Origin: a virus
DNA length: 64,000 nucleotides
Virus record (IMG/VR): IMGVR_UViG_3300044638_004964
Coordinates: 32,001-96,000 of that record
Strand: one strand, 5' to 3'
The notes below the pieces were generated by a model. It did not search any database, was not told the origin of the DNA, and worked only from the letters and a program-made list of their open reading frames with translations. Below are positions 32,455-63,891 of the stretch, piece after piece. The translations under genes and the position numbers were made by a program. How positions within the stretch are numbered: the stretch's first letter is position 1; the number at the start of each line of letters is the position of its first letter.

Positions 32455-32478
32455 GCCAGCTAGCTGGTCCTATGAATG

Positions 32479-32520
32479 AAAAAAGAAATGGGGGTGGCTC
32501 AAACCACCCCCTAACTTTTA
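32479..32520. terminator. Bidirectional intrinsic terminator between the convergent arms
   Basis: Stem GGGGGTGG (32490-32497), loop CTCAAA, CCACCCCC (32504-32511); A-rich run on the left and TAACTTTT on the right. Confidence 0.85.
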
Positions 32521-32576
32521 TCTAATTAAAACAATCTCTTTAGCTTGAGATATGTTTAGTGATATTTCAACAATTA

Positions 32577-41944: not shown

Positions 41945-43693
41945 TTAATGATCCAATTCATATGTCCAATTAAGACTGATGGAGTATCTTCCATCTTTTG
42001 GGTTCCAACTTTCCGATGGTGGACTCAAAAAATATTTTCTAATTCCCGGCTCATTTGCTGGACTTAGTGCGCTAATCAATTCATTAATCTGAGTTCTAAT
42101 TGGCTCATTTAAACTAGGTTTCGATAACACAAAACTATTTCTATTTCTACCATATGGTAAATCCGTATAATCTACTACAAATTCGATTCCAACGCTTCTT
42201 TGATATTCTGTGCGACCACCAATGTATTGTAAAATTGGTCCGGTTTGTCTACCAAGAACTGGAATTACAGCAAAAATATCTCCGGGATAAGTATCATTAA
42301 TAGAAATATTTTCCGATAATACGCCCGACATGTAATTCATGGGACGATTATCAAATTCAATATTATACGTTATCTCTCCTGTGAATTCATTAACTCCCAA
42401 ACTTAAACTTTTTGGTTGAGCATTTAAAACAGGGGCAACAGAATTGTCCGCTCTTTTATACAATGATGATGTTAAACCATATTGTCCGTTATTACTAATT
42501 TCACGATATTTTGCAAGAGCATTTTGATATGGGGAGATGCCTACCGGTCCAGTTCCACCATATAAAGATCCGCTAGATGGAACAGTGCTTAATCCTTTAA
42601 TACTTCCCTGTATTGATACTGATATAAGTGGAGCATCTAGACTACTACTAATATTCATATTATAGTTTTCATATGCCGTTCCACTTGATAATAACCAAGT
42701 GTCAACCAAACTATATTGACCGTTTGTTTTGTCAATACTTTCAGTTCTTGAATGATTATATCCTCCAAAAGCTTGAGAAATATTAAGAAAATCTTTAGCG
42801 AACACTTGTTCTATATCAAGGCTAGGGTATTCATCATATCCATTACTAGACTTAGCTATTTTTTTCTTTATGAAATTCTTAGCTTGTTGCCATCCCTCAT
42901 ATCTATGAACTTCGTTAGACTGTCCCGATGGGGCATATGTTACTTTACCTGTTGCTGAAATATTTCTAGTAAGTCTATAAGTTCTAATGCTTGTTATACC
43001 TATATTATTTGATGTGGTATTTGTTACTGCATTTTGATCATCTACTTCTATTGACCAATTTTCTGTAAAATCTTCTATAAAGCCACCAAACTCATTGATT
43101 AAATCTGTTTGTTTTTTTCTAACATTAGAATTGTAAAAATTGGTATTAGCATCAGCGCCGCCGGTTGCGAAAGTACTACCCAGTGATCCATCTACAAAAA
43201 CTTTGTTCTGCTCGTCTAATAATACATCAGCTCTTAAGGTGATTGTATATCTACATGTATTTACATATATGCCTTCTTCAAAATTAATTGATTGAACAGT
43301 TGGATAGCATGTAATAATGGGTTCATCAGATCCACCGCTATCAGTATTTCCAGAATCAACAGAAATTGGTAAAATTTCTATTTTTTGACCATCAAGAGCA
43401 AATAATTCTCTAAGAGCGTTTTGTTTTTGTAGTATTGATCTTAATTTTTGATCAAACGGTACAATTTGTCCGCTTGGTCTAGTATAAACGCTAACAAAAG
43501 AGCCGCTAGGCTGAATAGTATTCGCTACATATATTGGCGATCCTTCATCGTCAATAATCGTACCAGTAAGAGTAATGTCATAGGTGCCACCAAAAGTACC
43601 AATTTTATTCCTTTGTGCGGAATAGGATATGGATACGAACGGGGTTGGTCTAATGACACACGGAGACGTATGATTATAATATACTGTTATCAT
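41945..43693 (-). CDS. Putative distal tail/baseplate protein
   Basis: Repeated beta-strand units (ITLTGTI, YTITL, ITYNIEF, YSISLNW); position downstream of the TMP. Confidence 0.5.
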   Translation of the reverse strand: MITVYYNHTSPCVIRPTPFVSISYSAQRNKIGTFGGTYDITLTGTIIDDEGSPIYVANTIQPSGSFVSVYTRPSGQIVPFDQKLRSILQKQNALRELFALDGQKIEILPISVDSGNTDSGGSDEPIITCYPTVQSINFEEGIYVNTCRYTITLRADVLLDEQNKVFVDGSLGSTFATGGADANTNFYNSNVRKKQTDLINEFGGFIEDFTENWSIEVDDQNAVTNTTSNNIGITSIRTYRLTRNISATGKVTYAPSGQSNEVHRYEGWQQAKNFIKKKIAKSSNGYDEYPSLDIEQVFAKDFLNISQAFGGYNHSRTESIDKTNGQYSLVDTWLLSSGTAYENYNMNISSSLDAPLISVSIQGSIKGLSTVPSSGSLYGGTGPVGISPYQNALAKYREISNNGQYGLTSSLYKRADNSVAPVLNAQPKSLSLGVNEFTGEITYNIEFDNRPMNYMSGVLSENISINDTYPGDIFAVIPVLGRQTGPILQYIGGRTEYQRSVGIEFVVDYTDLPYGRNRNSFVLSKPSLNEPIRTQINELISALSPANEPGIRKYFLSPPSESWNPKDGRYSISLNWTYELDH

Positions 43694-49600: not shown

Positions 49601-52600
49601 GCTAAATCTAAAGAATGTCCAAACTGTCTACCTTCTTGTCCAACTTTCCAATATCTTTCTGTGATTGGCTCAAATCCAGCAACTAGAGTTCTTGTTGCTG
49701 TTGTGTAATAATCTCTGATATAACCAGATGGCAAATTAATTTGTTCTTCTAATACCCAAGGAGATTTATGTTCATTGATATTTAATGACCAAGAATTTCC
49801 GCTGGGCGCTGGTAGTCTTCTATAAAGAAATACTGTTCCAGCATCTTCAAGGACATAATTTACTGGATCAGAAACACTACTAAGTGGCGAACCAATTGCT
49901 ATTAGATCATTGTTTATAGCAACTGATTTACCATATTGAGCATTAACTTGTCTTCCACTTGCTACATATGGTTCATCGCCAATTAATTTAATTCCAGATT
50001 GACCAAATCCTTGAATATAGTAATTTATATCTTCTATTTCTGGTGGAACTGATATATAGTTGTTGCTTCCGGTTTTTCCAGTAATAAAAACTTTATATGG
50101 AGCATTTGGTATTAGATCTGTATATTTTCTAATACCATAAAAATGTCCACTATAACCTATTGGTGAATTAAATCCGCTAGTAGATAGATTGGTATATGTA
50201 TTTTTTGCTCTAAAAATTCCACCATCAACGCATAAGTCGTTATACCAAGTTTTATCATGAATAGTGAAACTGCTTTCTTGACAAGAATTTTCTGTTCCAC
50301 AATTACCGTAACATATTAAGTCTACGCCGCGAATTTCGTCATTAGCACTTAGTGTTGAATATTTATTATCATCAACTGATATGTTCTTTCCAACGTTATC
50401 ACTATTCCAGCTAATTCCGGCTTGTTGTGCAGTGTCTTGATTGTATGCTAAATAGTTTATTACGAATAATGGTAGACTATCTTCTAGTTTAGTAACTGTG
50501 TAATCTTGTGCAGCAACGTATAAATTTAAAGAATTTTCTGCGCTAATAAAGACATCTCTTAGCTCTGTATATAAAGACATTCTACTGTTTGGATAACGGC
50601 TATCTCCAGCAGTATTTGAGAATGCGTATAGACCTAATGAGCTAATACTGTAATCAGATATTGGTTTATTACTTAAGAATAAAGAGATATTTCCAGAGGT
50701 TGTTGGTGATGATAGTGAGTTCTTGGTAAATAGATTGATTCCCTGTTCATCGAACTGATTAAATCTACCGTCAACGAATAATATTGGACCAAAAGATGGA
50801 GAAGCTCCAAAAATATCGAACGATGAGTAGTTGCCATCTGAACTATCAATGGTTCCAATATTCAATGTGTAAAGCGGTAGAGTTCCACTTGATAATACCG
50901 CTCCAGAACACATTAGATTCATACCGTATCCATTGTTCCAAACGGAAGATGCTGTTGGAATGGGCATTCCGCTGGAAAATAAATTCAACCCACCAACTCC
51001 ACTTGCATTATCCAATCCATACGAATACAGATTTATGTTTGCCAAGGATATAGATTCACCACTACACACAAGATTAAATTGAGTATTATTACTAGGACCG
51101 GCTGTTACGCTATTAGCTTCAACGAGAGCATTTTCTAGTCTAACATTTGCACTATGGATTTTAATAGTAGCATCAAATGGAGATCCACTAGGATATACTA
51201 AGTCATATTGCAAAAACATATCATTAATATCAGTAGAATAATACTTTGTATCAAATTCTGATGTGTTTCGCTCTTGATCAAAATTAGCCCAAGGCTCGCT
51301 GGTGTCGATTAAATCGTTAAAATCAAAAATACTTGATAGTTTTTCCCAACAACCAGATGGGGCTAAATAGTGGGTGTGTCTATTAATTAGACCCCAATTT
51401 ACTTTGCTTGGTCTATCAACAGGCTCTTGATTTTTAGTATATAAACTTACAATTAACTTGGGGCCGATATTGCCATCATTCCAAACTACATTGTCTAATG
51501 TTTCGTATTCAATTATTGTATCAACAACCATAGCGCGTTCTGCAAAGTCGTATCCTCTTGGTAAGGTTTTGCATATTCTTGGTGGCAAAGACAAGAAATT
51601 TGGATTTGCATCTGGAATATCAGATAGATTAAATCTTAGGAAATCATTTTCTATTTGAGTGTGATAGCATACTCCAGATGTTGGAACGCTTGATGGAAGA
51701 ATAGAATCGGTTGTCAGGTTATATGCCGATCCATCGTGTTTTAATCGGTGAATTATATAGTCAGCACCAACTCTTTTTGTGAATGAGTTGTATGCTGGTG
51801 AAAATGCGCATATCTTAAAAGCTCCAAGATTCCATTCTGATGTATCATCATCTACATATTGCCATAATTTAAATTCATCTTTATCATAACTCTCGGATGG
51901 ATTCCAAAATTTATGCTTAATGGTTTCAAAGAAATGCTCGACTTGCATTTGTTTGTATAGTAAATCGACTTGTCCAGCATTATTATCTATTAAGTTGGTT
52001 CCGTCATCGTTATATGTAGAGATGCCGATATCAGTGATAAATAAATTACTACCAATGCCACTGCCATCACTGTAGCCAAACTTTAAATGACTATTACCAG
52101 AGGTCAATATGAATGATGATGATTGATCTCTCAGGTGATGGAATGTATTTGTTGAACTTTTTTCGTTATCTGTATAAAGCTTTAGCTTATTAGATAGGTT
52201 GTCATTGTATGTTAAAATAACAGATATTGGGTATTGATATTCGTAATAATATAAATTATCTTGAACTTTTTTAATCGATCCATTTGAAGCTCTAGCATAA
52301 CCTGTTAAATGGCCATTTTCATATCCCAAACTAAACTCTAGATTTTGACCACTATCATATTTAGCAAATATTATACCACTATTCCATAGATTATATCCAA
52401 CGCCACTCATATTGATATCTGGACTAAATCTTGCAAAAATAGAGAATCCACTAACAGTATCGATGTTTCCAAAATCAATATAGCCAGTATTACCAGAAAC
52501 TCTTACGGCATTGTCATACGAATCTGATATTAATCCATATAAAGAATCATTCTCGTAGCCATCTATAGAAGTCCAGTCTATAGTTTTATATGGTGTATTT

Positions 52601-55014
52601 TCTGAAAATAGCGATGTTGAATTGAATCTTAGTCCAATGTTTTTGATTTTATTATACGATCCAATATACTGACCACTAATTGGTGCAATGTGTGGAATAC
52701 TATCAGAAACTATAAAACCATTACTATCGTTATTAAATGAGAAATAACCATTTAAAAATGGAGTATTGAGTTGAGGATTATAGAATGAGAAGTCAAACTG
52801 ATAAGGGTCGAATGGGCCAGAAACTACATTTCCCTCTACCCCTCTCCATCTTCTAGAATAGTTAGTCTTTAATGTTGATGGTGTCTTATAACTATGTGGG
52901 ATATCTTCAATTAATGAAACTGGTGCGTATTCTGGACCAGTATTTATAAGATCGTCGTTGCTTTGTCGTGTAGATGGATAAATTTTTACTGTGCGAGAGT
53001 CTAATTCTCTGCTACCTTGACCAACGGTATGAAGCATTAATCCATTGGAGGGCTTATAATGAATAACAAGCTCTATCTTTGATATCGAAGCGCCGCTTGG
53101 TATGGGATAAATATCTAGATACAGATTCTCAAACGAGGAACTCATTGAGTAATCTTTTGACTTTCCTATTGCTATACGATCTTCGTATATTTGAAGCGGT
53201 ATAGTATAATCAACAAACGATGTACTATTAATAACGGGCGATGTGGCTAACTTATAGTGATCGCCACCATCATTATTAGTTAAAGATGATGTGTAGAACT
53301 CGTCTTTGTCAGAAAGGGCTTCTGATGAAATTCCTAATTCATTAGTTGGATTAAACCCAGAAGATGATGGTAGTGTTCCAGTTCCAGAGACATTTTGTAA
53401 AAATCCACCAACCGCTGGAGTTATATTCAATAATTTATCATCGCTATAGCCAACAACGTCAAGAACATAATCTCTACTCCCAGAAGCTTTTCTTGCGCGG
53501 ACTTTTAGCTCTATAGAGTCTATAGTGAAAAAATTATCAGTGGCCGCAACATTGCTAAGTGCCGCAGAATCAAAACTATTATCTTTACCAAAACTAAAAG
53601 CTCCATTTTGATATTCTATTACTCTTGTTGGAGCTTTGTGGCTAAACTTTAGATTCAATTTGCCAGAATCTGTTATTTCGTTTATGTAGTTTAAAGTTAT
53701 ATAGTCGCTACTAGAATCGTTAATAAGAATATTATTTAATACATTTGATCCACTGGCGCTTGTATTATATGTTGAAGAATTACTAGACTTCCAAGTACTA
53801 TTAACTTGCGGATATATATCCGTATCGAAGTCATTTGTAAGTACTTGAACTGGGAATATTGATCGTGAAATTCTTTGACCAATTGGGGCGACTTCTGAAT
53901 AAAAATTAAGATAGCTATCTCTGAGTATTCCAACTCCACCGCTGTTACAAATCTCTATAGAAGAAATTCTTAAATTATTCGTTGGGATGGATGGATAATT
54001 TTCTGGTGAGGATAGGTTTATTCCAGAAGTAGAACAGTCATTTTCGTATCCAAAATTAAAGCCAGTATTGAATGGGTCATCTAAACAAGTTGAATTTACA
54101 TCTATATTAAGAGTGTATCCGCTACCCTCTTCCATGAATGGATAATCTTTATCCCATGTGTGAAGTAATAGATTGTTTACATCTGGCTCTGAAATATAGG
54201 TTGAGTAATTTATATTCTCTACTGCATAATTAGAATCACCCCTAAGAATAATATCTTTATATTTTATGATTAGATTACCAGACGGATCTTCTAGTCTAAT
54301 ATTTGACAGGGTGTATTTTGGGGGAACGTGGGATATATAGTTCTTAGTTGGGGCCGATGCTCTTATAAATAAGAAGCTTTCTTTAGCAACTTGAGTAGGT
54401 GTTGTTACTTCAAATTTATATCTAAAATCACCATCGGTAAATATAGATGATGGTTGAATATATGAGTCGATTTCGTCAGATATTCTGGTGCTATTTTTGA
54501 AATTTTGAGTATAGTTACCAGTAAAAATACCCTCATCGATACTAGAATAAAGATTGCCTGTCCCCAAATTTTTATTAACAAAATAATTACCATCAAGGAC
54601 AGTTACTATATCTTTAATGGGGTATAGTTTTTCTGTGGCTTGAAAATTATCTATACTATTTATTTTGGTTATAGATCCAGCAAATTTATCTGTATAAGAA
54701 TTATACAGTCGGCTTGATGAAGATAATCTTCCAACCAAATTGCCAGAGACTGTTAGTGTGCCGCGAATATCACTATTAGACGATTGCGGTAATTCCTGTA
54801 AACCAAAAGACATATTACTTTTGGCTTGAAAATCACCATCTACCGTTAGAGTTGCTGTTAAACCAATCCTTTTACTAAGATTAGGTTTTAATTTTCCTAT
54901 AGCAGATATTCTAGCAGTGGGGGATAAAGTAGCTAATGTTTTAGCTTTAAAAGAACTTGATGATTTTAATCTACTAGTTCGTTTTATCTGACAAGATATA
55001 CAATCTAATGACAT
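43693..55014 (-). CDS. Giant (3773 aa) adhesin-like tail protein with LamG-like domain and seven FG-GAP blades
   Basis: Blades begin YGKSVA, FGHSLD, FGHAVA, LGYSVA, FGYSID, FGYDVA, YGDSVA, each followed by G(S/A/G)P. LamG-like FSIFARF...IIFAKY...LKLYTD. Confidence 0.75.
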   Translation of the reverse strand: MSLDCISCQIKRTSRLKSSSSFKAKTLATLSPTARISAIGKLKPNLSKRIGLTATLTVDGDFQAKSNMSFGLQELPQSSNSDIRGTLTVSGNLVGRLSSSSRLYNSYTDKFAGSITKINSIDNFQATEKLYPIKDIVTVLDGNYFVNKNLGTGNLYSSIDEGIFTGNYTQNFKNSTRISDEIDSYIQPSSIFTDGDFRYKFEVTTPTQVAKESFLFIRASAPTKNYISHVPPKYTLSNIRLEDPSGNLIIKYKDIILRGDSNYAVENINYSTYISEPDVNNLLLHTWDKDYPFMEEGSGYTLNIDVNSTCLDDPFNTGFNFGYENDCSTSGINLSSPENYPSIPTNNLRISSIEICNSGGVGILRDSYLNFYSEVAPIGQRISRSIFPVQVLTNDFDTDIYPQVNSTWKSSNSSTYNTSASGSNVLNNILINDSSSDYITLNYINEITDSGKLNLKFSHKAPTRVIEYQNGAFSFGKDNSFDSAALSNVAATDNFFTIDSIELKVRARKASGSRDYVLDVVGYSDDKLLNITPAVGGFLQNVSGTGTLPSSSGFNPTNELGISSEALSDKDEFYTSSLTNNDGGDHYKLATSPVINSTSFVDYTIPLQIYEDRIAIGKSKDYSMSSSFENLYLDIYPIPSGASISKIELVIHYKPSNGLMLHTVGQGSRELDSRTVKIYPSTRQSNDDLINTGPEYAPVSLIEDIPHSYKTPSTLKTNYSRRWRGVEGNVVSGPFDPYQFDFSFYNPQLNTPFLNGYFSFNNDSNGFIVSDSIPHIAPISGQYIGSYNKIKNIGLRFNSTSLFSENTPYKTIDWTSIDGYENDSLYGLISDSYDNAVRVSGNTGYIDFGNIDTVSGFSIFARFSPDINMSGVGYNLWNSGIIFAKYDSGQNLEFSLGYENGHLTGYARASNGSIKKVQDNLYYYEYQYPISVILTYNDNLSNKLKLYTDNEKSSTNTFHHLRDQSSSFILTSGNSHLKFGYSDGSGIGSNLFITDIGISTYNDDGTNLIDNNAGQVDLLYKQMQVEHFFETIKHKFWNPSESYDKDEFKLWQYVDDDTSEWNLGAFKICAFSPAYNSFTKRVGADYIIHRLKHDGSAYNLTTDSILPSSVPTSGVCYHTQIENDFLRFNLSDIPDANPNFLSLPPRICKTLPRGYDFAERAMVVDTIIEYETLDNVVWNDGNIGPKLIVSLYTKNQEPVDRPSKVNWGLINRHTHYLAPSGCWEKLSSIFDFNDLIDTSEPWANFDQERNTSEFDTKYYSTDINDMFLQYDLVYPSGSPFDATIKIHSANVRLENALVEANSVTAGPSNNTQFNLVCSGESISLANINLYSYGLDNASGVGGLNLFSSGMPIPTASSVWNNGYGMNLMCSGAVLSSGTLPLYTLNIGTIDSSDGNYSSFDIFGASPSFGPILFVDGRFNQFDEQGINLFTKNSLSSPTTSGNISLFLSNKPISDYSISSLGLYAFSNTAGDSRYPNSRMSLYTELRDVFISAENSLNLYVAAQDYTVTKLEDSLPLFVINYLAYNQDTAQQAGISWNSDNVGKNISVDDNKYSTLSANDEIRGVDLICYGNCGTENSCQESSFTIHDKTWYNDLCVDGGIFRAKNTYTNLSTSGFNSPIGYSGHFYGIRKYTDLIPNAPYKVFITGKTGSNNYISVPPEIEDINYYIQGFGQSGIKLIGDEPYVASGRQVNAQYGKSVAINNDLIAIGSPLSSVSDPVNYVLEDAGTVFLYRRLPAPSGNSWSLNINEHKSPWVLEEQINLPSGYIRDYYTTATRTLVAGFEPITERYWKVGQEGRQFGHSLDLAIYSGNNSLHEPNKEVLVVGGPSSLWSRTFESVNPSSVQIGLMIFTDEFTPIVGQGKSTRTYVDVLNSIKDKDVIFKYFSSPSTAFDVKLIILEPTLDDTESAPSEEFPNPKPTFITKKRIHRRQGSDLQTEKILSGIKEAFNEAFPYNEDLINNNIPPIVGFYVDNSASLGKESLNGDGGGAIDQFISYYQQYSFESGVSDFYGTQSSGAITEFVPTFNDAENWIKMSQDILNHTLDTGRLVLNDQVKYITSGVGSQYFNPNLGEFNYVPTSGGKVYIFEKESGTWSLIQQIDSPADSYGIPDRFGHAVAISNNTEVIAIGSPYINNACEIYEYNNDEKVRLYNDIGPWINLKSSQSGGIGRYAKLRLEYITNVASLGLLEAGKTLYVALNTTERFEARRYLNINEYINIKSFRYSDLSILGTWEFIPQRFLPTPRLGYSVAVNEDGTIVAFGSPTDSLNQWDDGNVWYKNDGYNEPLNIDGLNGPIKSSWQSNTNAGAVRLFESRNYYPHNKVVEFTKFGNLEESISSPENSGHFRYLSQIFQNYNFEKTEFSDLNIPKEAGLAFIITPEIDALSEEILDKLIKWLELGDRNLVLVGNDPLWENNGIYLKSNNIINKILSGLKSRMRLHPARNEYEALVSGCDFNVIPSFRPSQGASTYIQPQTLRGYGVADIRMHLPDYRYTMPCDLKDMWDNPLNHECQMPLIHNGDLRAEWLEQCDRCSGPTIIYPVNWPLVFKTFTPDCCSQSDISAPRYDLTNLEPIPLLVAAESVVNTITYPAIPARYESFPRYRYETRSESTSFTNFDNTNIGSGIEFIWSSSSGNYTYLNTNYGNTNSLGRFFDPELFDDRDSLLQSSATSREGTVIERFVLDDFSTYCAQQNYEASSSKVILIAGVVTESRSQLYNGQGDRNINFYANIAYNTENLKSNIAQLGGWTNRTNFRDGYNDSHLNQLFINLGHTVDVNVQTLYSTHDICWIANPDTLPNNEEINSIKNWLSIGNKKLVITYDGNNLSSVQSKARTASQLCSLLGISITPHFLDEDNIYPVAQTRFQTLAFNESSDLSGNGKTKITSYQLISQIRFVPIKTQDINNRVCYADDSIKATRRKLIGYWQMKSGVAKVSFPVIAGSGYKIFVDTVSETSSETEPLNVFISNANTEAGLPYPTMPRSSPIVDLDINSDQFVTLENAPVGVFRRLSPATIGFVNTYSINVQIPSGMSALTMYFDGNNQRLLNQNKTYAPKSTRLLAVSGASIPVIETVLTQVTKIPILDGFDEIKTREAIPEETITFSAFRPISTDNTKYCSSDRCIENKMNDKLIADGPVVAAQESISSFLAGNNRSRITVLADSSFVQGPCMIDENDLISQNTISFLTSMYPTSPRNSNFGRQFNTMTKIIAPERGSPQKYYALYNSSGINYLFNNGSTSQSLLSNFDDKESKYDPRYVLRTRQPYNNAMDFEEIQKIIKQKIAEFANLQSAYGATAKFSGVIEGVLYEDASFAGGMPELMKKTGYDYLNFDRFSVGYPGDLFGYSIDLYNNKLVVGSPFAAFSDESINPWNHYVSGGLSSGIQLGYNGGAGSVYIFEKTYNGSGLLGAKTPWEFTEKLRPESINIGSGNSGNSIVGDRFGYDVAIDNDTMVIGAPGHDYENHIIVNSGSFGVKFFNKEFDNYYLSFYDLGSKSNRDAFGTSGNISLNNGAIFTFENRIIDWPTRKQKWTLVQKSVAEGYNSRERINSYYGDSVAIDMANRTDSDYSIVVGSPFHQYAISGNHSSTQPLNGAGASYALDVMLREQPASGPSKDSFLNARVFGETLIDGNPTINISFKNNSDNNKSYLASGVIYSNNQGEIFLEASGQDPVTKGFIQHRPYIFAIDGQYMYGTPISQGMILTNFGKAVDIDNNMNMYTNVDDNAFVYNNLGMYTSSITGFASGIPSGLYLFTDCPDPTVISNSGLTLFASGIGTDTDTLNLRIRGK

Positions 55015-55018
55015 AATT

Positions 55019-58000
55019 TTATCCTAATACTGATCCGTTATTTTGTATTCCGTTTTCCGTTGGGTAAGAATTCTTTAGTTTCTCAGAAACTTTGCCCATT
55101 ACTCGGCTCTCTAAATTGTCCGCAAAAGCATTCAACATATTTCCACCCATAACATTAACATCGACTTTAGTATCGGCTATTTGGTGAGATATTGTGGTTG
55201 GTAATGACTTGATACTTTCTGCTACTCCGTTAACATAACCCATCACTCTGGTTAGTGCTTGTGTTAATTTTTCAAAAGATTCCGTAGATCCACTTCCGCT
55301 ACTAGATGATACACCACCTCCAGCATAATATTGAACTTTACCACCTCTAGCAAACCCCATGACGGCAGAACTATTAGTCATGCCACCGCCCGTCCCGTTC
55401 ATTTGTTGTAATATTTGTAGATTATTGCCACGATTAACAGCTTCTCTTCTGACTACAAATTCTCCGGGAGTTAACATTGCGGGAACAGTATCGGTTCCTC
55501 TTGGGATAAACATTCCACGATTAGCGTATATTAAGCCACCATTTGCTTTTCCTAAAGCCGCAACGGCAGCTTGTCCTCTTTCTTGTACTTTATTATAAAT
55601 AACTTGAGCATCCCTGACATTGATTGTGGCCGATTCTAATTGCATATTAGCCATCTCTGCCCCAAGCTGTCCAGTTTCTCCAAGAGCGGTGCCATAATCT
55701 CTCAATCTAGACTTAGAAGCTTCCTCTTCTGCCGTTGTTCCGCTAGCAACTTGTGCTAATCTAGGATCAGTGACTCCTCTAGCACTTAAAGCAGAACCAA
55801 AAGCTTGTTGAGTTAAACCTCCCTGTCCAGCTAATTGAGTGCCGTATAAAGACTGAACACCAGCTTCTTGCTGTCTTCTAATATCTTGTGCTGCTAAACC
55901 TAAAGCTTCTGGACCAAAAGCTCCCATCAAAGATTTATTCCCAGTAGCTATAGCGGCAGTTGCCCCAACAGTAGCTTGTGTTTGCATAAACTTGTCAATA
56001 TCACCAGAAACAAGAGCATCTATAGAATCTTTTTCTAATTTATTTTTTTCACCAATTAATTTGAGATTTTCTTCTTCAAGCTTAACAAGTTCTCTTATAG
56101 TATTAACTTGGTCTTTTTGAGCTTTTTGCAAGTCTTGTTGCATTTCATTCATTCTTGCGCCATTAGCTCCTTCGAATCCGTTCTGCTCTGTTCTTGATCC
56201 TTCAATTGCTGTAAATTTATCTAGAATTTCTTTATTTCGTCCACGAATGTCTGCTAAACTTCCAGTGTTCATATTTGATAGACCTAAGTTATTAACATTG
56301 GCTCTATCTAATACGTTCTTTCTTCTTTCTTCATTTGTGACTACTTTGCCGCCATATTTACTTTGTAGTTCTCGCCCCTCTAATGTTAAGGATAATGCTT
56401 CTTTTTGAGCCTCTAAAGCATTTCTTTCTGCTTCTATTCTTTTCTTTGTTAGGTCAATTAATACCTGTTCGGCTTTTTGTCTATCTTGAGCAATTTTTTC
56501 AATTTCTTCAAACGCTTTTTTTTGTGATTCTGATAACTTATCACCAATAACACTCTTATCTCCACTTAGTAATTTTTCAACGTCTTTTTGATCTAACTCT
56601 AGACCTCTAATAACAGATTTTAGATTATCTTTGATTGCTCCTTCTGGTAATCCATTAGATAACTCTTCAGCAAATCTATTTTTTAATTCATCTGGGCTTA
56701 GAATTTTACCAGTAACTTTCATTTCGTCTCTTATTTCATCAAAAGCGGCACCGTAGTTTTGCTGGGCTTGGATAAAGGCTGCGGTATTGCCTTTAAATTT
56801 AGCAACATCGCCGGGAGAAACTCCAAGGCTAGAAAGATTTTTACCGACATTTTCCATAGACTGTTTGATTTCATCTGGGTCCATAGATGCTGCCGCGCTA
56901 CCCATTGCTTCTTGCAAAAAGGCAACATCATTAACGAACGAAGAGCCACCAACTTCTAAACCAGCAGCAAACTTAGTCATACTCGCTGACTGTGCGCTAC
57001 TTATAGAAGTTGCTGAACGTAAACCCAAACTCATTGCGTCCAAAGCTGCTCTTGCTGTTTCAATTTCTTTTGATAAATTTTTAAAACTATTTTCTAACTC
57101 TTGAGACATTTCATACGCTGCTTCTGACTGTTGTTGCAGCAGGTTAGCGGTGTCATTATCGCCTTTATTTCTAGCTTCTATTGATTGATTAGCTAAAGAT
57201 AAGCCTTTTGCTCTTAAGGATGTTGCTGATTCGCCACCGCTAGCTTGAATTTCTGCATCAATTGTTGCTTGATCTTTATTAAGCAATATTCCCGATCTCA
57301 TAGCCTCATTAGTTAGAGGTCTTCGCATCTCAAACGCTTTTCTTTGAGCATCCATTGAAGATTTGTTTAATCCTTCGTTTTCTTTATCAATTCTAGCATT
57401 TCGTGTAGATGCGCTTTCAACGTATCCTAATGTTGCGAAACTTGCTACATTTCTACCAAAACCTTCAAGACCTCCTTGATTTTTATTTGCATTATTTGTT
57501 TGTATCGCTTTTTGATTAGCTTGTTCTAAATTATTTGCTTCCGTTGTAACATTTCTAATTTTTGACAAGGCATCTGCTGCTGATATAGTTCCTCTATTGA
57601 AATCTTCCATCGCTTTTGCGGCATCTTTTTCGCCTTGTTCAAAAGCTTTTTGAGTTTTGGTTGCTTGAGCTTGAGCTTCTGATAAAGCTACTACACTGTC
57701 TTTAGTATTTCCACCAAATAATTCCGATATAGCTTCTGATAGACCCGGATCTTGTGAAGCAATTAAAGTTCCAAGACCAGCACCTATAGCCGCTCCGATT
57801 GGGCCACCAAGCATAAATCCAAGTACGGCACCACCGCCACCTAAAGCCATTCTGCCAGTATTTCCAGCTTCTAAGCTGTATTGATCAGATGCAGCTTTTC
57901 CAGCAGCCTCAACGTCGCCACTTTCAATAGCTTTTTTCTTTCGAACTTCTGCATCACTGAACGCTGTTACCGCAGCATTAAATAAAGATATTGCAGTTGT

Positions 58001-61000
58001 GGCAACGGCTAAAGGTCCAGCAAGTCTACCAAACTGAAATGCAACTTTACCTATCGGGCCACTCAAAGACCTAAAAATATCGCCAGTTCTTCCTTTAGGT
58101 ATAAATTGTTCTACGTCTACTCCGGGGGAGCTTCTTAAACGTCCGCTTTTGTTACGTCTTAAAGCTAGTCCTCTAAGTATATCTCTGTCGGAACCAGATC
58201 CGGGATCTCTATAATTTAATAATCCCGGAACCCTTTGCCCAATACCAGTAGAACCGCCACGCCTAAAAGCATCTATGCTATCACGAAGATCTGAGCTTCT
58301 AGCTCTTCTATCAAACGGTCTAGTAACTTTGCTTTGAAAATCACCTCCGCTCTTCCCAGATAAAAATTTACCAACACTTTGCTTTGTAAGAGATACTCCA
58401 AATCCTTCTAAGGCGAATACAACTCCGCCAATTGTGGTAATCATACTTAGTACAGAATTACCAAACTTTTGCATAGCTGAACTATTATCATCAATTGGTG
58501 GCAACATAGCTTGTAGTGCGCCAGACGCTACGCTTATACCAAGTCCAAAATTATTAGTAGCTTGTGTGGCTCTTTGAGTTGCTTGAGCTTGTGCGGCAGT
58601 GTTTACAGTTGCTCCGGGTCCACTTGGGGCGGTAACGGGTTGAACACCCGTTCCGGTAGATCCACCAGCAAATTTTTGAACTATTCCACCGTTAGCATAT
58701 TTACCAACCTTATTCATGCGATTAAGATTGCCATAACCAATACGCTGTGCGGACGATCTATTAACAACAAACTCGCCGGGAGTTAATAGTGCGGGAACAG
58801 TATCTGTGCCAACCCCGCCACCGGTTGCGAATCTAGCCACGCGATCTACTCTAGAGCCTTTGTTTCTAATAGCATCTATTGCTGGCTGTTTACTGCCGCC
58901 CTGAGTAAATATCATATTCTGAACTGGAATACCAAACTGCGAACTGAGATATTCAGCCGCGCCCTTAACTCTTTTTGACTTGCTTATAATGCTTACTTTG
59001 CGAGCATCTATTTGTCCATTTTTAATTGCAATTTGTAATTCTCTACCAAACTGTGTAATTGGGGCAGTTTGTAGATCTTGAAGACGCTTTGCCTCATCTC
59101 TAAAATATGTATTTAGCGATGCGTCTTTTGCTCCCGGAGTTGGGGCTTTGGCGTAAGCTGTATCGCCAATTGTTCTTTTGAGTGTTCTGTCAACATCAAC
59201 CGCGCCACCGCCAGCCTTGATTAAAGCTTGTATTGCCGCGCTTGGCCTTGGAAGAATTGAGCCGGATGCTTGTAGTATATCATCAACAAGCGGAGCGTTT
59301 TCTATACCTTTAGCTCTACCACCCATAGCAAATTTTTGAATTATTCCACCAGCAGCTTTTTTAGTAGCTAAATCATTTTTAACAAGATATCTATCAACTT
59401 GAGCTAGAAATTTGCTGTTATTTTTACCGCCACTACCAATAGTTCTAGTTACGTCTGTTGGTATATTGGAAGCTATTCCAAATTTTGATGATACCGCACC
59501 AAGGCCAGAAGGAAAATCTAATGGTGAATTTATGCCGTCTTTTTCAAAGGGCGCACCAACAAGTGCTAATGAAGATTCTAGATAAGCACCAGCAGCATTA
59601 TAAAATCCAGCTTTTTTGATTACATCATTAATAAATCCTTGTTCTAGTTTTGGTCTTGCTCCTACGCTTGTTGCTAATTTTGTGCCAATATTTTTAATGG
59701 TATCGATGAACCCACTTTTCATGACACCTTCATATTGTTTGGATTCTTTTTTATTTAATCTAGCGCCTTGGATAGAGACTTGTGTTTTTGTTTTGGGTGT
59801 AATGCCAAGCGTGGGACCGTAAGCATTTCCAAATAACCCAACTAATCCAAACTTGGGAACATTAGCAAGTTTTTCTTGATTTTCAAATCCTTTTTTTCTT
59901 TTTGCTAATTCATTAGCAACTCTAGATGCGCCAGCCCTTGATAAAGCCGTATTTCCACTGAGCGATGATAATTGATCATCTGATAAAGATGCAAGATTGG
60001 ATCTAGCTGGGGTTCCAGATCGTGGAATAATAGCTTTGCCACCACGATCAAATCTTTGTACTTCTCCACCCCTGTTCATGCCAGCTAAGTTACTAGCACC
60101 TAACTTTTGAACACTACTTTTTCGTATAACAAACTCGCCGGGGCTTAACATAGCTGGAACGGTATCTCTATTACCAACGCCGGGAACCAAACCGCCAGTG
60201 GCAAAATGATGAACTTTTCCACCTTTATTAAAAGTGCGACCAGATTGTAATCCAGCGGCAGTTGCTCCAACGAATGTTCCAATTCCTCTAATTGCCCTAA
60301 AAGCAGCTACTGATGCAAGCAACGGAAGTAATGGCTTAATTGAGTCTGCAACTTTAATTAAAGCACTTGCAAGCGTAAGTGCTGTATTAGCCATGATCTG
60401 AAATGTCGAAGTTTCAGTAACGCTACGAATTAATGCTAGAAATTCTTCTCTTACTTTTGCTATACGAACAGCTAAAGCTGCTTGTGCCGAAGCAGCATCT
60501 TGAGATAATGAATTATTAGCTTTTGTAGCAACATTCAAAGCGGCTTCTGCTGTAGAAAATTGCTGTAATAGTGGAAGAACTTTACCAATTTGTCGGAATC
60601 CACCAAGCTCTTCTGCGACTTTGATAAATGTAATATCTCTTTCGCCAAGACCAGCTAAACCTTCACTGAGTCTTTTAACAGCTTCGAATGGTCCAACGAA
60701 TTTACCTTCTAGGTCTACTAGATTAACACCGAACTGTTTTAAAAATTCAATAGTTTCTGGTCGTTGAATACGTGTGAAAATTGTTCTTAAGCCCGTACCA
60801 ATACTTTCAGCACTTTCGCGGGTTGTTGCTCTGACTGATGTAAATAGGGCGAGTAGTTCATTAAGATCACCGCCAGAAGATTTAAACACACCGCCCGTTC
60901 TACGAATAACGTCGATCAAGTCGCTAGCTTCAACGGCGAATGCGCCAGCAACAGCATTAATTGATCCTAACTGGCTCTCTAAAGCTCCAACGCCCTGTCG

Positions 61001-61576
61001 AAACTGAGCAAGAATAGCAATAGCACCTTCGGCAGTTTGCGTTATGCTATCAAAGTTGGGGGCTAGTGCTGCTTGTGCTAATGAATTAAGAGCAACTTTG
61101 GTATCGGAAGCACTTAGGCCGGCCTGTGTTAAAACCGTAGTAACTTCTAGCAATGACTGTGATGATACACCAAACCCTCTTGCTAAATTAGTAATTTCAT
61201 CAGTTAAATCTCTTAAGCCGCCCACGCTTTTGCCGGTGACTTGGGCAACCTTAACTAACTGACGCTCAAAATCAATAGAAGTTTGTATAGCATCGCTAAG
61301 TGTGCTAGTAAACAAACCTACTGCTCTAGTAGCTATAGAGAAAGCGGCAAAACGGCGAATAGACACAGCAAAAGCTCGACCCATCCTATCAGCAGCCGAA
61401 GTTGCTTGATTGGTGGATTGAGTTATTTGCTGTATCTGTTGCTGTGCCCGTGCTGATCCTTGAACCTGTACATTAACGTTAATACCATTAAGTTGGCTCT
61501 GGATTTGGCTAACAATTTGCGATACATTGTTAGGGGCTTGTAATTGTAATTGAGCGGTTAATACGAAACGTGCCAT
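55019..61576 (-). CDS. Tail tape measure protein
   Basis: N-terminal TP901/PhageMin_Tail-like region (DFERQLVKVAQVTG...), Ala/Gly-rich hydrophobic segments, long coiled coils, three DTVPA(M/L)L(S/T)PGEFV motifs. Confidence 0.92.
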   Translation of the reverse strand: MARFVLTAQLQLQAPNNVSQIVSQIQSQLNGINVNVQVQGSARAQQQIQQITQSTNQATSAADRMGRAFAVSIRRFAAFSIATRAVGLFTSTLSDAIQTSIDFERQLVKVAQVTGKSVGGLRDLTDEITNLARGFGVSSQSLLEVTTVLTQAGLSASDTKVALNSLAQAALAPNFDSITQTAEGAIAILAQFRQGVGALESQLGSINAVAGAFAVEASDLIDVIRRTGGVFKSSGGDLNELLALFTSVRATTRESAESIGTGLRTIFTRIQRPETIEFLKQFGVNLVDLEGKFVGPFEAVKRLSEGLAGLGERDITFIKVAEELGGFRQIGKVLPLLQQFSTAEAALNVATKANNSLSQDAASAQAALAVRIAKVREEFLALIRSVTETSTFQIMANTALTLASALIKVADSIKPLLPLLASVAAFRAIRGIGTFVGATAAGLQSGRTFNKGGKVHHFATGGLVPGVGNRDTVPAMLSPGEFVIRKSSVQKLGASNLAGMNRGGEVQRFDRGGKAIIPRSGTPARSNLASLSDDQLSSLSGNTALSRAGASRVANELAKRKKGFENQEKLANVPKFGLVGLFGNAYGPTLGITPKTKTQVSIQGARLNKKESKQYEGVMKSGFIDTIKNIGTKLATSVGARPKLEQGFINDVIKKAGFYNAAGAYLESSLALVGAPFEKDGINSPLDFPSGLGAVSSKFGIASNIPTDVTRTIGSGGKNNSKFLAQVDRYLVKNDLATKKAAGGIIQKFAMGGRAKGIENAPLVDDILQASGSILPRPSAAIQALIKAGGGAVDVDRTLKRTIGDTAYAKAPTPGAKDASLNTYFRDEAKRLQDLQTAPITQFGRELQIAIKNGQIDARKVSIISKSKRVKGAAEYLSSQFGIPVQNMIFTQGGSKQPAIDAIRNKGSRVDRVARFATGGGVGTDTVPALLTPGEFVVNRSSAQRIGYGNLNRMNKVGKYANGGIVQKFAGGSTGTGVQPVTAPSGPGATVNTAAQAQATQRATQATNNFGLGISVASGALQAMLPPIDDNSSAMQKFGNSVLSMITTIGGVVFALEGFGVSLTKQSVGKFLSGKSGGDFQSKVTRPFDRRARSSDLRDSIDAFRRGGSTGIGQRVPGLLNYRDPGSGSDRDILRGLALRRNKSGRLRSSPGVDVEQFIPKGRTGDIFRSLSGPIGKVAFQFGRLAGPLAVATTAISLFNAAVTAFSDAEVRKKKAIESGDVEAAGKAASDQYSLEAGNTGRMALGGGGAVLGFMLGGPIGAAIGAGLGTLIASQDPGLSEAISELFGGNTKDSVVALSEAQAQATKTQKAFEQGEKDAAKAMEDFNRGTISAADALSKIRNVTTEANNLEQANQKAIQTNNANKNQGGLEGFGRNVASFATLGYVESASTRNARIDKENEGLNKSSMDAQRKAFEMRRPLTNEAMRSGILLNKDQATIDAEIQASGGESATSLRAKGLSLANQSIEARNKGDNDTANLLQQQSEAAYEMSQELENSFKNLSKEIETARAALDAMSLGLRSATSISSAQSASMTKFAAGLEVGGSSFVNDVAFLQEAMGSAAASMDPDEIKQSMENVGKNLSSLGVSPGDVAKFKGNTAAFIQAQQNYGAAFDEIRDEMKVTGKILSPDELKNRFAEELSNGLPEGAIKDNLKSVIRGLELDQKDVEKLLSGDKSVIGDKLSESQKKAFEEIEKIAQDRQKAEQVLIDLTKKRIEAERNALEAQKEALSLTLEGRELQSKYGGKVVTNEERRKNVLDRANVNNLGLSNMNTGSLADIRGRNKEILDKFTAIEGSRTEQNGFEGANGARMNEMQQDLQKAQKDQVNTIRELVKLEEENLKLIGEKNKLEKDSIDALVSGDIDKFMQTQATVGATAAIATGNKSLMGAFGPEALGLAAQDIRRQQEAGVQSLYGTQLAGQGGLTQQAFGSALSARGVTDPRLAQVASGTTAEEEASKSRLRDYGTALGETGQLGAEMANMQLESATINVRDAQVIYNKVQERGQAAVAALGKANGGLIYANRGMFIPRGTDTVPAMLTPGEFVVRREAVNRGNNLQILQQMNGTGGGMTNSSAVMGFARGGKVQYYAGGGVSSSSGSGSTESFEKLTQALTRVMGYVNGVAESIKSLPTTISHQIADTKVDVNVMGGNMLNAFADNLESRVMGKVSEKLKNSYPTENGIQNNGSVLG
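55454..60166 (-). repeat. Three copies of the DTVPAxLxPGEFV motif in the TMP (55454-55492, 58766-58804, 60128-60166)
   Basis: Similar at both protein and nucleotide level. Confidence 0.9.
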
Positions 61577-61612: not shown

Positions 61613-62479
61613 TTAACTATCCGAAGATTTGGATTTCTTTACTTTTACTACCGCCTTGGCTTCTTCTATAGCTTGGTCGTTATCATCCAAATATGTTATA
61701 CTTGGAATGTAATTACCAGAATCATCTAGAATATTGCCATCTTTATCTGTTCTTTGACCATCACTATTGATATAGTAACCCTGCTTGTCAATTCTGCGTC
61801 CTTCTAAATCTACTGTTTCGCCCTTTTCATTGACTAAACTAAGATTTTCGTCTACATAATTGAACATTTTAAGGAACTTATTTTCGGGCAATTTGGACTC
61901 AAAATCCTTATCTACCGAATAAAGCATACCGGCTAATGTTGTAGCGGCGGCATACCCAATTTCATCGTCAGATCGTCTTTGATAGTCTTCTAAATCATTA
62001 TACACCTTATTGCCATTTTCATAATATGCGCAATTAGCAACTAAAAAGTCGAATTTGCTATTATCAGAAATAGATTCCGCTGTATTTTGCTCTAGAGATA
62101 ATCTTTCGGATATAAGATCGCGCAACTCATTCCTCTTTTTGCGCATTTCTATAGCAATTCTTTTACCTTCTGATGCTCTGAGTTTACCATTCTTGCCACC
62201 GACGTAAAGCTGTTTTTCTAGACTAAAAATAGTATCAGTTATTGACTTTTGCTTTTCGTCCTTATCTTTATCCCATACGCCTTGGGCGTTCATGAACTTT
62301 TCAAGTTCTTTCTTAGTCATAATTCCTTCACGAACACAGTCTGTCCAAACTTTCGCACCAATTCTTTGTGATGCTGACATTAGTGTGTTGCTTGGCTTTT
62401 TAACGTATAGTTTGATTGTTTCCTCTTTACCATTCTTAGTGATTGTAACATCAACAATTTTTTCTTTATCCTGTGACAT
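61613..62479 (-). CDS. Putative tail assembly chaperone (paralog B)
   Basis: Immediately upstream of the TMP; AGGAGG ribosome-binding site; similar to 62866-63891. Confidence 0.6.
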   Translation of the reverse strand: MSQDKEKIVDVTITKNGKEETIKLYVKKPSNTLMSASQRIGAKVWTDCVREGIMTKKELEKFMNAQGVWDKDKDEKQKSITDTIFSLEKQLYVGGKNGKLRASEGKRIAIEMRKKRNELRDLISERLSLEQNTAESISDNSKFDFLVANCAYYENGNKVYNDLEDYQRRSDDEIGYAAATTLAGMLYSVDKDFESKLPENKFLKMFNYVDENLSLVNEKGETVDLEGRRIDKQGYYINSDGQRTDKDGNILDDSGNYIPSITYLDDNDQAIEEAKAVVKVKKSKSSDS

Positions 62480-62491
62480 AATTTGTCCTCC

Positions 62492-62854
62492 TTAGTTCTT
62501 TGGTGGTTGAATAACTGGCATTTGGATTGAGTATCTTAACCATTCTACGTCATATTGAGCTAATTCAGCATCAATATTACGAGCTTGATTATTACCCTTA
62601 TCTAAAATTTCCGATCTAATCTTGTTGTATAAATCTTTGAGTTGTTCTTGGTCTTTGGTTAGTGGTTTATCAGAATTACTATTCCATAAAAACCCTAGAT
62701 TTTCTTCTATGCTACTTAAAGCTCCTATCATTGTTGTCTGAATTTTCTTTTTAAGAATTTTTGACAAACGTTCTTTTGAGTCAAGCTTGTATTTTGCTTC
62801 TCTAATTTTTTTATAGTCATTTATCTTAATATAATCTTCTGGCAAATTGTCCAT
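62492..62854 (-). CDS. Hypothetical helical protein
   Basis: AAGGAGG ribosome-binding site; lies between the two chaperone-like paralogs. Confidence 0.65.
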   Translation of the reverse strand: MDNLPEDYIKINDYKKIREAKYKLDSKERLSKILKKKIQTTMIGALSSIEENLGFLWNSNSDKPLTKDQEQLKDLYNKIRSEILDKGNNQARNIDAELAQYDVEWLRYSIQMPVIQPPKN

Positions 62855-62865
62855 TATATCCTCCT

Positions 62866-63891
62866 TTAATGTCTTCCTCTTAGTTGATTAGTTGCTTTCA
62901 TTTGTAAATTAAGTCGTTCGTCTGCAAATTGATCTTGGGTCGCGGTTCCTTTATTTTTAAGTAATTGCTCTCTTTGTTTTTTGATCATTGTTGCGTGTGG
63001 ATTATTTAATGAGTCAATTTTGCGAACATCTTTATCATTATTTGCCATTACGAAAACTTCTGAAGAATTCTTGATCTTGTCGTTTTTAACTGAATTTTCA
63101 AATTCTTTTTCGTTTATTTCTCTCTCCCTCTTTTGACTCTGTAATATAAACCAGCCGTCTAATAAATCATCGTCTTGTATTACTTCTTTTTGTGGGCAGT
63201 CCATAGATTCTTGAATATTATCATATGTTTGTGACCATATTATTAAATTTTTTTGATTATATGTCAATTCTTGATCTGGGCTATTATTAAATAGTTTTAC
63301 TTGAGCATTTTCTCTAATTACCCATAAAGATTTCCAAGGTTCTGATCTAGATAATTCTCTTATTTTAGATTCTGCTATTGCAGAATTTTGATATTCATCA
63401 ACAATATATTGTAGTGAAATAGTATCAAAGTCATACAATTCGTTGTTTTGATAAGTAGTGTTTCTTATTATCCATGCTAATTTTTCATACGAAGCAAAAC
63501 CTTCGCAAGTATTTAAATAATATTGATTTTTTTTATTGCTATGAGATATTAACTGTTTTTCTCCAGCCCTAATATATAATCTGATCTGTTCTCTTAGTGA
63601 GTCATTATTTCTAGCGTTATAAATTTCTATTTTTAAACGCTCAATGTCTTTATTTAGACCTTCTAATTTTTCATCGTCTGATTTTGTCCATAGATCTTGT
63701 TCTCTCATCCATTGGTCAATTTCGCTTTCATCCATCATCCCGTCAACATAAGCTTGCTGAAATGATTCGTTATAAACCTGACAAGCTTGAACGTATTGAT
63801 CAATAGTTGGTGGAATAATAACTAAATTTTTAACAAAATATTTTCCAGAACGTATGAGGGAAATAAAAAACTCCCGCTCATGTTGTTTCAT
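62866..63891 (-). CDS. Putative tail assembly chaperone (paralog A, with C-terminal extension)
   Basis: GAGG ribosome-binding site; N-terminal half aligns by eye with 61613-62479. Confidence 0.55.
   Translation of the reverse strand: MKQHEREFFISLIRSGKYFVKNLVIIPPTIDQYVQACQVYNESFQQAYVDGMMDESEIDQWMREQDLWTKSDDEKLEGLNKDIERLKIEIYNARNNDSLREQIRLYIRAGEKQLISHSNKKNQYYLNTCEGFASYEKLAWIIRNTTYQNNELYDFDTISLQYIVDEYQNSAIAESKIRELSRSEPWKSLWVIRENAQVKLFNNSPDQELTYNQKNLIIWSQTYDNIQESMDCPQKEVIQDDDLLDGWFILQSQKREREINEKEFENSVKNDKIKNSSEVFVMANNDKDVRKIDSLNNPHATMIKKQREQLLKNKGTATQDQFADERLNLQMKATNQLRGRH

Follow-up and report, generated by a model that had tools for sequence, protein, structure and literature searches.

A 64,000-nucleotide stretch of viral DNA (the window; positions 32,001 to 96,000 of IMG/VR record IMGVR_UViG_3300044638_004964, a linear virus contig of 105,961 bp with an estimated completeness of 67%) carries a gene, P0001, for a tape measure protein (TMP) that is punctuated by copies of a junction module also found in gpH, the TMP of phage lambda. 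The reading we favour, with slightly more than even confidence, is that this TMP is a series of units strung on gpH-type modules, in which cargo domains would be bracketed, processed, injected and recombined at paired glycine motifs (GG dyads). Besides setting tail length, the protein probably also carries proteins that are to be injected. The gene is placed as follows:

55019..61576, minus strand: TMP gene P0001, 2185 amino acids (aa), with matches to PF10145, TIGR01760 and PHROG TMP families

PF10145 matches at aa 129-313 (80.4 bits against a cut-off of 33.2), TIGR01760 (tape_meas_TP901) matches at aa 89-425 (91.3 bits against 28.8), and several PHROG TMP families also match. The first-pass annotation, made from the DNA letters and their open reading frames (ORFs), had called the product a TMP, and the two scores above cut-off bear this out; by these family matches it is a TP901-type phage TMP of an uncultured phage. 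The lambda-type C-terminal models PF09718 and TIGR01541 match neither P0001 nor its module. Among GenBank phages the TMP locus has no close DNA relative, and protein matches are confined to the N-terminal core (N-core).

All the GG motifs of the first-pass annotation, and its three copies of DTVPAxLxPGEFV, were recovered at the positions it had reported by translation of the ORF and pattern counts. The DTVPAxLxPGEFV copies begin at aa 471, 925 and 2029 (window positions 60128-60166, 58766-58804 and 55454-55492). The GG motifs are FNKGG/FATGG (aa 449/458), MNRGG/FDRGG (500/509), KAAGG/FAMGG (740/749), FATGG (916), YANGG/FAGG (960/968), KANGG/YANRG (2010/2017) and FARGG/YAGGG (2075/2084). The pattern [FYM][ADN]xGG occurs 10 times in P0001, against 0.37 expected, and none of 2000 shuffles reached 10. 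The motifs are not the free-standing signals that had been proposed, but parts of a conserved module of ~75 aa with position-specific subtypes, of which hidden Markov model (HMM) searches find three copies in P0001, at aa 447-519, 903-981 and 2007-2095. The module runs from a first GG dyad (GG-x-[VI]-x-x-[FY]-[AD]-x-GG) through the DTVPAxLxPGEFV core and ~20 residues leading to L..MN, to a second GG dyad; the stretch between the core and the second dyad is a short helix that ends in L..MN. The modules, and a dyad that stands alone, are located as follows:

60020..60238, minus strand: junction module 1 (aa 447-519, subtype T1), made up of a GG dyad, the DTVPAMLSPGEFV core, L..MN and a GG dyad; HMM score 95.3 bits
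59318..59359, minus strand: stand-alone GG dyad AAGGIIQKFAMGG (aa 740-753), separating two cargo domains
58634..58870, minus strand: junction module 2 (aa 903-981, subtype T2, DTVPALLTPGEFV); HMM score 113.5 bits
55292..55558, minus strand: junction module 3 (aa 2007-2095, subtype T3, PRGTDTVPAMLTPGEFV); HMM score 69.8 bits

Judged by sequence, module 3 and the last 90 aa are the canonical tip-proximal end of a TMP, placed as in lambda gpH.

Homologues were collected with aa 440-1000 as the query; of 8000 candidates that were scored, 2685 proteins proved significant, and the analysis took in the best 120. HMM searches found 418 modules in 121 homologues, with two to seven in each protein, and the module pattern matches at least 599 stretches in IMG/VR. 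GG flanks lie on both sides of 351 of 357 module cores, and the density of GG per 100 aa is 4.15 within modules versus 1.16 outside them. Eight columns of the module are invariant, D, P, G-E-F-V and N among them. The first module is of the type VPGxGNxDTVPAM (T1) in 97 of the 121 proteins, and the last is of the type PKGTDTVPAM (T3) in 82 of them. This tie between subtype and position argues for selection for position-specific roles, and not for decaying duplicates. It bears directly on one alternative, in which the modules are scars left by fusion or internal duplication of ancestral TMP or tail-lysin genes with gpH-like ends, and serve today as mere linkers. Such an origin would agree with the single module near the C-terminus of canonical TMPs, with the fact that every unit of P0001 ends in a module, and with those relatives in which two long tapes are each closed by one. 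However, few parts of these proteins are as well conserved as the modules, at both the protein and the DNA level, across hundreds of divergent phages, and module subtypes are kept by position, a pattern indicative of purifying selection and not of decay. We therefore regard scars of this kind as highly improbable.

A profile built from 55 modules was searched against the PDB sequence set, where it matches lambda gpH at residues 731-785 (E 2.8e-5) and the TMP of mycobacteriophage Douge, gp16, twice, at 962-1036 and 1412-1464 (E 3.3e-10); it does not match T5 pb2. The module HMM also scores lambda gpH, with an independent E-value of 3.4e-12 and an envelope of 705-798. In E. coli phage grams, the module directly follows PF09718 and maps to TIGR01541 positions 253-314. 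On these profile matches, the P0001 module is the same element that occurs once near the C-terminus of lambda-type TMPs, and lambda gpH and phage grams both bear out the statement of the first-pass annotation that TMPs usually have a single core motif, close to the C-terminus. In cultured phages, the module is found in the following proteins, each listed with its neighbouring enzyme domain:

Streptomyces phage VWB gp47: module at 781-855, SLT domain at 959-1041
Cyanomyovirus S-SCSM1 gp159 (hub protein): module at 589-669, glucosaminidase at 697-816
Mycobacteriophage Imvubu gp21: modules at 974-1047 and 1743-1819, Rpf-like domain at 1271-1344, between both modules
Gordonia phage Clawz gp56: modules at 886-966 and 1192-1280, SLT domain at 1531-1617

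Modules thus lie beside or around wall-hydrolase domains in cultured phages, so the pairing of module and enzyme is not peculiar to the P0001 family. In Synechococcus phage S-SCSM1 (L089, 3192-6044), the protein concerned is the baseplate-hub 'lysozyme' virion protein of a T4-like cyanomyovirus, with the module just ahead of the glucosaminidase, and the module is consequently restricted neither to TMPs nor to siphophages.

The homologues of P0001 follow a common grammar: an N-core of ~446 aa (kept in 113-114 of 120), a module, cargo, the domain found at aa 754-914 in P0001, optional extra cargo, a module, a tape of 1000-1300 aa that is both hydrophobic and helical, a module, and a C-terminal end (C-end) of ~90 aa. 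The 1000-1300-aa length between modules is a constant feature, and some homologues have extra long segments that are each again closed by a module. P0021 has the two cargo domains in swapped order, and in P0080-P0093 the 754-914 domain comes immediately after module 1. Some relatives of 3400-3800 aa (P0021, P0080-P0093, P0085, P0105) contain two tape-like segments, of ~1100 and ~950-1230 aa, with a module at the end of each, as though two rulers had been lined up in series.

Within this grammar, GG joints are where the cargo held by modules 1 and 2 can be exchanged. In pairwise alignment, P0008 is ~99% identical to P0001 up to aa ~501 and only ~10-15% identical across the first cargo slot (slot 1), and similarity returns exactly at KFAMGGRAKGI, aa 748; P0005 and P0007 behave likewise. 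Pairwise similarity falls again right past the last dyad of module 2, at aa ~972. The same picture is obtained with DNA (blastn against IMG/VR loci): blocks of homology span aa 1 to ~500 of P0001, and the points at which blocks end or restart (aa ~489-515, 743-760, 915-922, 963-980 and 2041-2069) are module edges. GG motifs do mark domain boundaries, as the first-pass annotation had supposed. When 84 loci were gathered by module seeding, a set with less bias, their 90 cargo segments between modules fell into 39 clusters, and only 16 of the loci had the 754-914 domain. A [FYWLMH]xxGG motif precedes 105 of 111 copies of this domain and follows 100 of 111. Taken together, the breaks and resumptions of similarity on GG dyads and the variety of cargo clusters indicate that flanks are conserved, contents vary and joints fall on the GG dyads. 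Slot lengths range from ~120 to ~780 aa among relatives with conserved flanks, which suggests that the cargo lies outside the length ruler.

The first cargo domain evolves quickly:

59351..60019, minus strand: slot-1 cargo (aa 520-742), fast-evolving, with a G..FE / DFP.GLG / (D/E)xK-like pattern

Iterated HMM searches find the slot-1 core in 98 of 121 homologues, so what looks like swapping of slot-1 cassettes is for the most part strong divergence among the alleles of a single family, which narrows the swapping proposed in the first-pass annotation. Divergent alleles are as expected of a component under diversifying pressure. The pattern consists of G..FE, DFP.GLG and then a further D; all 12 sequences compared share the E and the two D residues, and many relatives have DAK or EFK at the (D/E)xK position. 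The layout E..D..(D/E)xK is that of PD-(D/E)xK nucleases. At the level of motifs, slot 1 is thus nuclease-like, with a degenerate copy in P0001. There were no matches to slot 1 in Pfam, NCBIfam or PDB sequences, profile search included, and none when it served as the query in an IMG/VR scan. Among short proteins, its profile found one contig fragment only and no free-standing homologue. The wider region aa 440-986 has no PDB sequence match. Pfam and NCBIfam likewise hold nothing significant for aa 754-914 or for the module. Matches of segments or module to EAD6 (E 0.05) and GHL13 (E 0.008) were under cut-offs and were discarded, and look-alikes of both cargo segments in the ESM Atlas (scores 0.78-0.85) were uninformative.

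The second cargo domain is better defined:

58835..59317, minus strand: slot-2 cargo (aa 754-914), a HAD-like alpha/beta domain with a helical cap, as modelled with AlphaFold2 (AF2) and compared with Foldseek and VIA-align (VIA)

The AF2 model, with a predicted local distance difference test (pLDDT) score >90, is an alpha/beta domain with a helical insert. The best PDB matches in Foldseek are almost all HAD phosphatases, among them human phosphoserine phosphatase (E 8e-3, probability 0.98) and AphA. In VIA-align, acid phosphatases of classes C and B score Z 6.0-6.5 with a root-mean-square deviation (rmsd) of 3.8 over 119-123 residues; the class C enzyme reaches Z 6.5 (rmsd 3.8 over 121 residues). 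Matches in BFVD are viral nucleotidases, phosphatases and PNK phosphatase domains. The sequence VDVDRT lies at aa 793-798, and the D, D, R and T of DxDRT (794-798) are invariant in 52 of 52 sequences. In the model, DxDRT directly follows the first core strand (model residues 47-50), and the helical cap comes next (model residues 59-108). A helical insert after DxDxT is the arrangement of C1-capped HADs. IIS-K-S (S-K-S at aa 865-867) follows the strand at model residues 117-121; 50 of the 52 sequences have S here and the other 2 have T, and the Lys of GGSK (K896) is invariant in all 52. The S/T and the Lys are assigned as HAD motifs II and III by position only. Twenty-seven columns of the domain are invariant across the 52 sequences. 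As modelled and aligned, aa 754-914 form a folded, strongly constrained domain; that it has a HAD-like phosphatase fold is fairly probable, and an enzymatic role is predicted. Of the two globular, enzyme-like segments proposed in the first-pass annotation, this one holds up, whereas the other (aa 514-739) reached a mean pLDDT of only 56.

A profile search of 1.84 billion representatives found 53 relatives of the 754-914 domain, all of them inside giant TMP-like proteins or fragments of these, and no HAD; none was found in 185,579 species genomes. In P0140 (4320 aa), 29 stretches matched the profile, but what matched there is a tandem repeat of 103 aa with much Ala, Ser, Thr and Gly, and the matches were rejected as a compositional artefact.

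A third kind of cargo is seen in relatives. PF03496, the ADP-ribosyltransferase (ART) domain, has no match in P0001, and matches the relatives P0015, P0018-20, P0024, P0026 and L036 with 26.6-28.5 bits (cut-off 23.4). In some relatives the cassette is 219 aa long and is located between the HAD-like domain and the following module; L036 has another ART. The ART motifs FVSTSK (STS) and SEEEV (ExE) are intact and of the R-S-E type. ART requires nicotinamide adenine dinucleotide, and this need fits a cytoplasmic destination of the cargo. A Pfam search with 20 other cargo representatives left 19 of them without a family.

Support for the module as a cleavage or handling signal comes chiefly, by homology, from two known cases. 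In lambda, a peptide of ~14 kDa is cut from a Gly-rich region close to gpH's C-terminal end, with the site and the protease stated to be unknown (PMC12617516). Computed from the sequence, the mass of this fragment places the cut near residue 715-720, within a Gly-rich run (701-745) that comes after a hydrophobic stretch and serves as the module's N-flank. In T5, the cut in pb2 separates a hydrophobic stretch from the metallopeptidase domain, and the tail retains the enzyme fragment (bioRxiv 10.1101/2022.09.20.507954). P0001 has the same order as at this boundary: the hydrophobic end of the N-core, then module 1, then enzyme-like cargo. By analogy, we infer that cleavage occurs at the modules. 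Two other kinds of processing were considered and rejected: the hydrophobic spacing is unsuitable for C39 double-glycine leader sites, and no dipeptide for Asp-Pro or Asn-type self-cleavage is conserved in common with lambda.

Several observations weigh against the reading of bracketed, processed and injected cargo, the first of which concern cleavage. The whole 75-aa module is conserved, beyond its GG motifs, which would be explained no less well by a role in binding or structure than by cleavage. In the monomer model the module comes out disordered (pLDDT <50); a prediction of a three-copy module complex scored 0.01 and is evidence in neither direction. The lambda cut is placed from a gel-based mass alone. 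No Prok-JAB (PF14464), NlpC/P60 (PF00877) or other candidate protease was found in the 105,961-bp record; PHROGs gave only vague tail matches on ten further ORFs, and no peptidase domain was found in P0001. As the record is ~67% complete, the absence of a protease is weak evidence. The missing protease would also suit an account in which the modules are uncleaved structural joints, composed of short beta-strand and helix elements with flexible GG turns, and the chain is ejected whole with its cargo tethered. Such joints would dock the TMP to the tube lumen, to assembly chaperones or to neighbouring TMP chains, and would let bulky domains pack in the tail. A full module with position-specific subtypes and eight invariant columns is more than a minimal cleavage motif, and a module that is unstructured alone is as expected of an element that folds on a partner. 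Nevertheless, the homologous region of lambda adjoins a stretch that is truly cleaved (PMC12617516), T5 cuts its TMP at the equivalent boundary of hydrophobic stretch and enzyme, and a cytoplasm-type enzyme, such as the ART of the relatives, would work better if released. We consider joints that stay uncleaved possible, but doubtful.

The other opposing observations concern the cargo and its setting. The P0001 slot 1 reads DVTR, with Thr for Lys, and its nearest relatives D-V/A-T-R, so that the putative catalytic Lys is absent. The low-scoring AF2 model of slot 1 is mostly helical, with a pLDDT <50 in the motif region and a shallow alignment. CheY-like receivers tie at Z 5-6 with the HAD matches to aa 754-914, all of which are at Z <8, and no HAD family in Pfam or NCBIfam matches this domain. 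The canonical HAD motif IV is missing, with no conserved acidic pair past the Lys in 52 sequences; a hydrophobic-DD upstream of motif I (LVDD, with the DD at aa 765-766; present in 45 of 52 and gapped in 7) could be a permuted strand. Nearly all close homologues keep the 754-914 domain, which is not freely swapped; variation as cassettes between conserved flanks, the expectation of the first-pass annotation, is seen at slot 1. Finally, the neighbouring tail genes lack family matches, with one exception described below.

Some of these observations would also agree with inserted domains that serve the virion and are not injected, for instance a HAD-like domain that is non-catalytic or acts at assembly and a slot 1 that is a spacer or receptor-side adaptor, with variability reflecting relaxed constraint. 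The confinement of the 754-914 domain to these TMPs, without free-standing or cellular relatives, the like confinement of slot 1, the loss of the putative catalytic Lys and the 19 of 20 cargo representatives without a Pfam match are all on its side. Against it, the 27 invariant columns in 52 sequences, which include a complete DxDxT, S and K set, argue for retained chemistry, and the ART of the relatives has intact STS and ExE motifs. Relaxed constraint would moreover not yield sharp, allele-like replacements between near-identical flanks. A purely virion-internal role is therefore unlikely.

With cleavage and injection as the favoured reading, the remaining parts of the protein can be placed in a mechanism. 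They are:

60242..61576, minus strand: N-terminal TP901-type core (aa 1-445), with an amphipathic/hydrophobic stretch at its end; PF10145, TIGR01760
57758..58465, minus strand: hydrophobic region with three membrane-like segments, from a hydropathy scan
55577..57709, minus strand: presumed helical length-measuring tape (aa ~1290-2000), from its low Gly/Pro and highly charged composition
55022..55291, minus strand: C-terminal end (aa 2096-2185), a presumed tail-tip plug, from a cluster of 60 conserved C-ends

The membrane-like segments of the hydropathy scan are at aa 1038-1064, 1185-1207 and 1250-1273, the last being a glycine zipper. Relatives of P0001 carry PF13441/PF13488 Gly-zipper and PF06897 domains in this region. 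P0001 itself has a weak Gly-zipper match. A weak match to TIGR03789 (PdsO, sortase-associated OmpA-like) at aa 1192-1325 (window ~57602-58003, minus strand; E 1.7e-5, far under cut-off) overlies the glycine-zipper region. The charged stretch of ~700 aa with little Gly and Pro is taken as the helical tape, its helicity being judged from composition. The TMP is resolved at the extreme C-terminal helix alone in the virions of lambda (residues 818-849; PMC10721106) and Douge (residues 1658-1699; PMC13033339), and the C-end of P0001 would be equivalent to these resolved helices.

In the mechanism that we propose, the TMP would be threaded into the tail tube at assembly, where the modules would act as docking and processing stations and, for the C-terminal module at least, the chain would be nicked in or beside the GG-rich flanks. 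Module 3 and the C-end would form a tip plug like the C-terminal fragment of gpH (gpHC). On infection, the C-end and the hydrophobic tape would exit first and build a channel through the envelope, formed by the three hydrophobic segments (aa 1038-1273) and the helical tape. The cargo and the N-core would follow ahead of the DNA and enter the cell, where the enzymes would act on host targets; in P0001, the cargo amounts to ~380 aa between modules 1 and 2 and is N-terminal to the membrane segments. The GG dyads would double as recombination joints that swap cargo between phages. A bolder version, which we offer tentatively and think improbable as a whole, holds that the gpH-type module is a portable processing signal of tape measure and hub proteins in tailed phages that are only very distantly related, and that such TMPs are true polyproteins, cut at every module as tails mature or eject. 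A channel former for the membrane and a varying set of freed enzymes (phosphatase-like, nuclease-like, ADP-ribosyltransferase) would then arrive before the DNA as a first-strike counter-defence kit, with the GG dyads as joints for its exchange.

The surroundings of the gene are sparsely annotated. Small ORFs lie upstream of the TMP gene and very large ones downstream, on the same strand, an order that would suit a tail gene block, and the sole known-family match among the neighbours (Pfam, PHROG) is to FG-GAP repeats. This match is found in an ORF of 3773 aa (window 43693-55014, minus strand) that begins 4 nt past the TMP stop; PF14312 FG-GAP repeats (E 2.2e-16) are its only family match, PHROG gave none, and the ORF probably encodes a giant protein of the distal tail or of a fibre. 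Upstream, three ORFs of 341, 120 and 288 aa (window 61613-63891, minus strand) match nothing in Pfam or PHROG save a sub-threshold DUF3659, and no recognisable G/GT-type chaperone pair is present among them. In the record as a whole, replication-side genes are on the plus strand and structural genes on the minus strand, and the two converge near window 32,200-32,600.

The arrangement in P0001 resembles several known systems in part. Lambda gpH, which is processed to gpH* and gpHC, has the same module; as in P0001, a hydrophobic, Gly-rich stretch leads up to it and a short C-end, the tip plug, comes after it, but gpH has one module and no embedded enzyme in 853 aa, whereas P0001 has three modules and two cargo domains in 2185 aa. 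The gpH family is TMP_2/Tape_meas_lam_C, while the N-terminal family of P0001 is TP901-type. T5 pb2, which is processed to pb2* and pb2C, is likewise a TMP with an enzyme, and release of its cleaved fragment into the host has been proposed (bioRxiv 10.1101/2022.09.20.507954). The pb2 enzyme is however a C-terminal muralytic metallopeptidase for the periplasm, while the cargo of P0001 sits inside the chain, on the N-terminal side of the membrane segments, and its predicted chemistry is of the cytoplasm type. The TMPs of actinobacteriophages (TM4-type; Douge, Imvubu, Clawz, VWB) are also large, with internal enzyme domains and one or two modules, but their cargo consists of cell-wall hydrolases of known Pfam families; in the literature searched, the bracketing module is not singled out as a unit. 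Polyvalent proteins share the presence of several conflict-type enzyme domains (ART, nuclease-like, phosphatase-like), co-delivery with DNA and proposed processing (Iyer et al. 2017, PMC5512222). They differ in being delivered from the head or by conjugation and in typically having an MPTase peptidase of their own, while no peptidase domain was found in P0001; the paper that describes them contains no mention of tape measure proteins (PMC5512222). The contractile injection system (CIS) effectors Sle1/Tme have a TMP-like helical scaffold in the tail tube and exchangeable functional domains (PMC13277306, PMC11126660). These differ from P0001, a phage TMP with internal cargo, in that their cargo is bacterial, the functional domain is C-terminal and no gpH-type modules are reported.

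TMP processing (lambda, T5), muralytic domains in TMPs (T5, TM4-type), polyvalent injected proteins and reconfigurable CIS effectors are already known. TMP processing and TMP-borne enzymes being familiar from lambda, T5 and mycobacteriophages, the system is not undescribed in kind, contrary to what the first-pass annotation had proposed. Three aspects appear to be new: the C-terminal element of gpH seen as a repeated, portable junction module that brackets cargo; the non-lytic, cytoplasm-type chemistry of the cargo, predicted from sequence, in a large family of TMPs from uncultured phages; and the mapping of recombination joints onto GG dyads. No description of a module-bracketed cargo arrangement was found in the literature searched on TMP-borne effectors and polyproteins.

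If the favoured reading is true, a repeated conserved unit would be defined around the gpH cut, a question open since the 1970s, and predictions for lambda, Drexlerviridae and actinobacteriophages would follow. The module would be a handle for splitting giant uncharacterised TMPs into domains, with its many copies in IMG/VR, and would mark natural, tolerated junctions for the insertion of cargo into phage tails. The TMP would then be a general, reconfigurable injection vehicle for cytoplasm-type enzymes, beyond cell-wall hydrolases, and would parallel the head-packaged polyvalent proteins and the CIS effectors.

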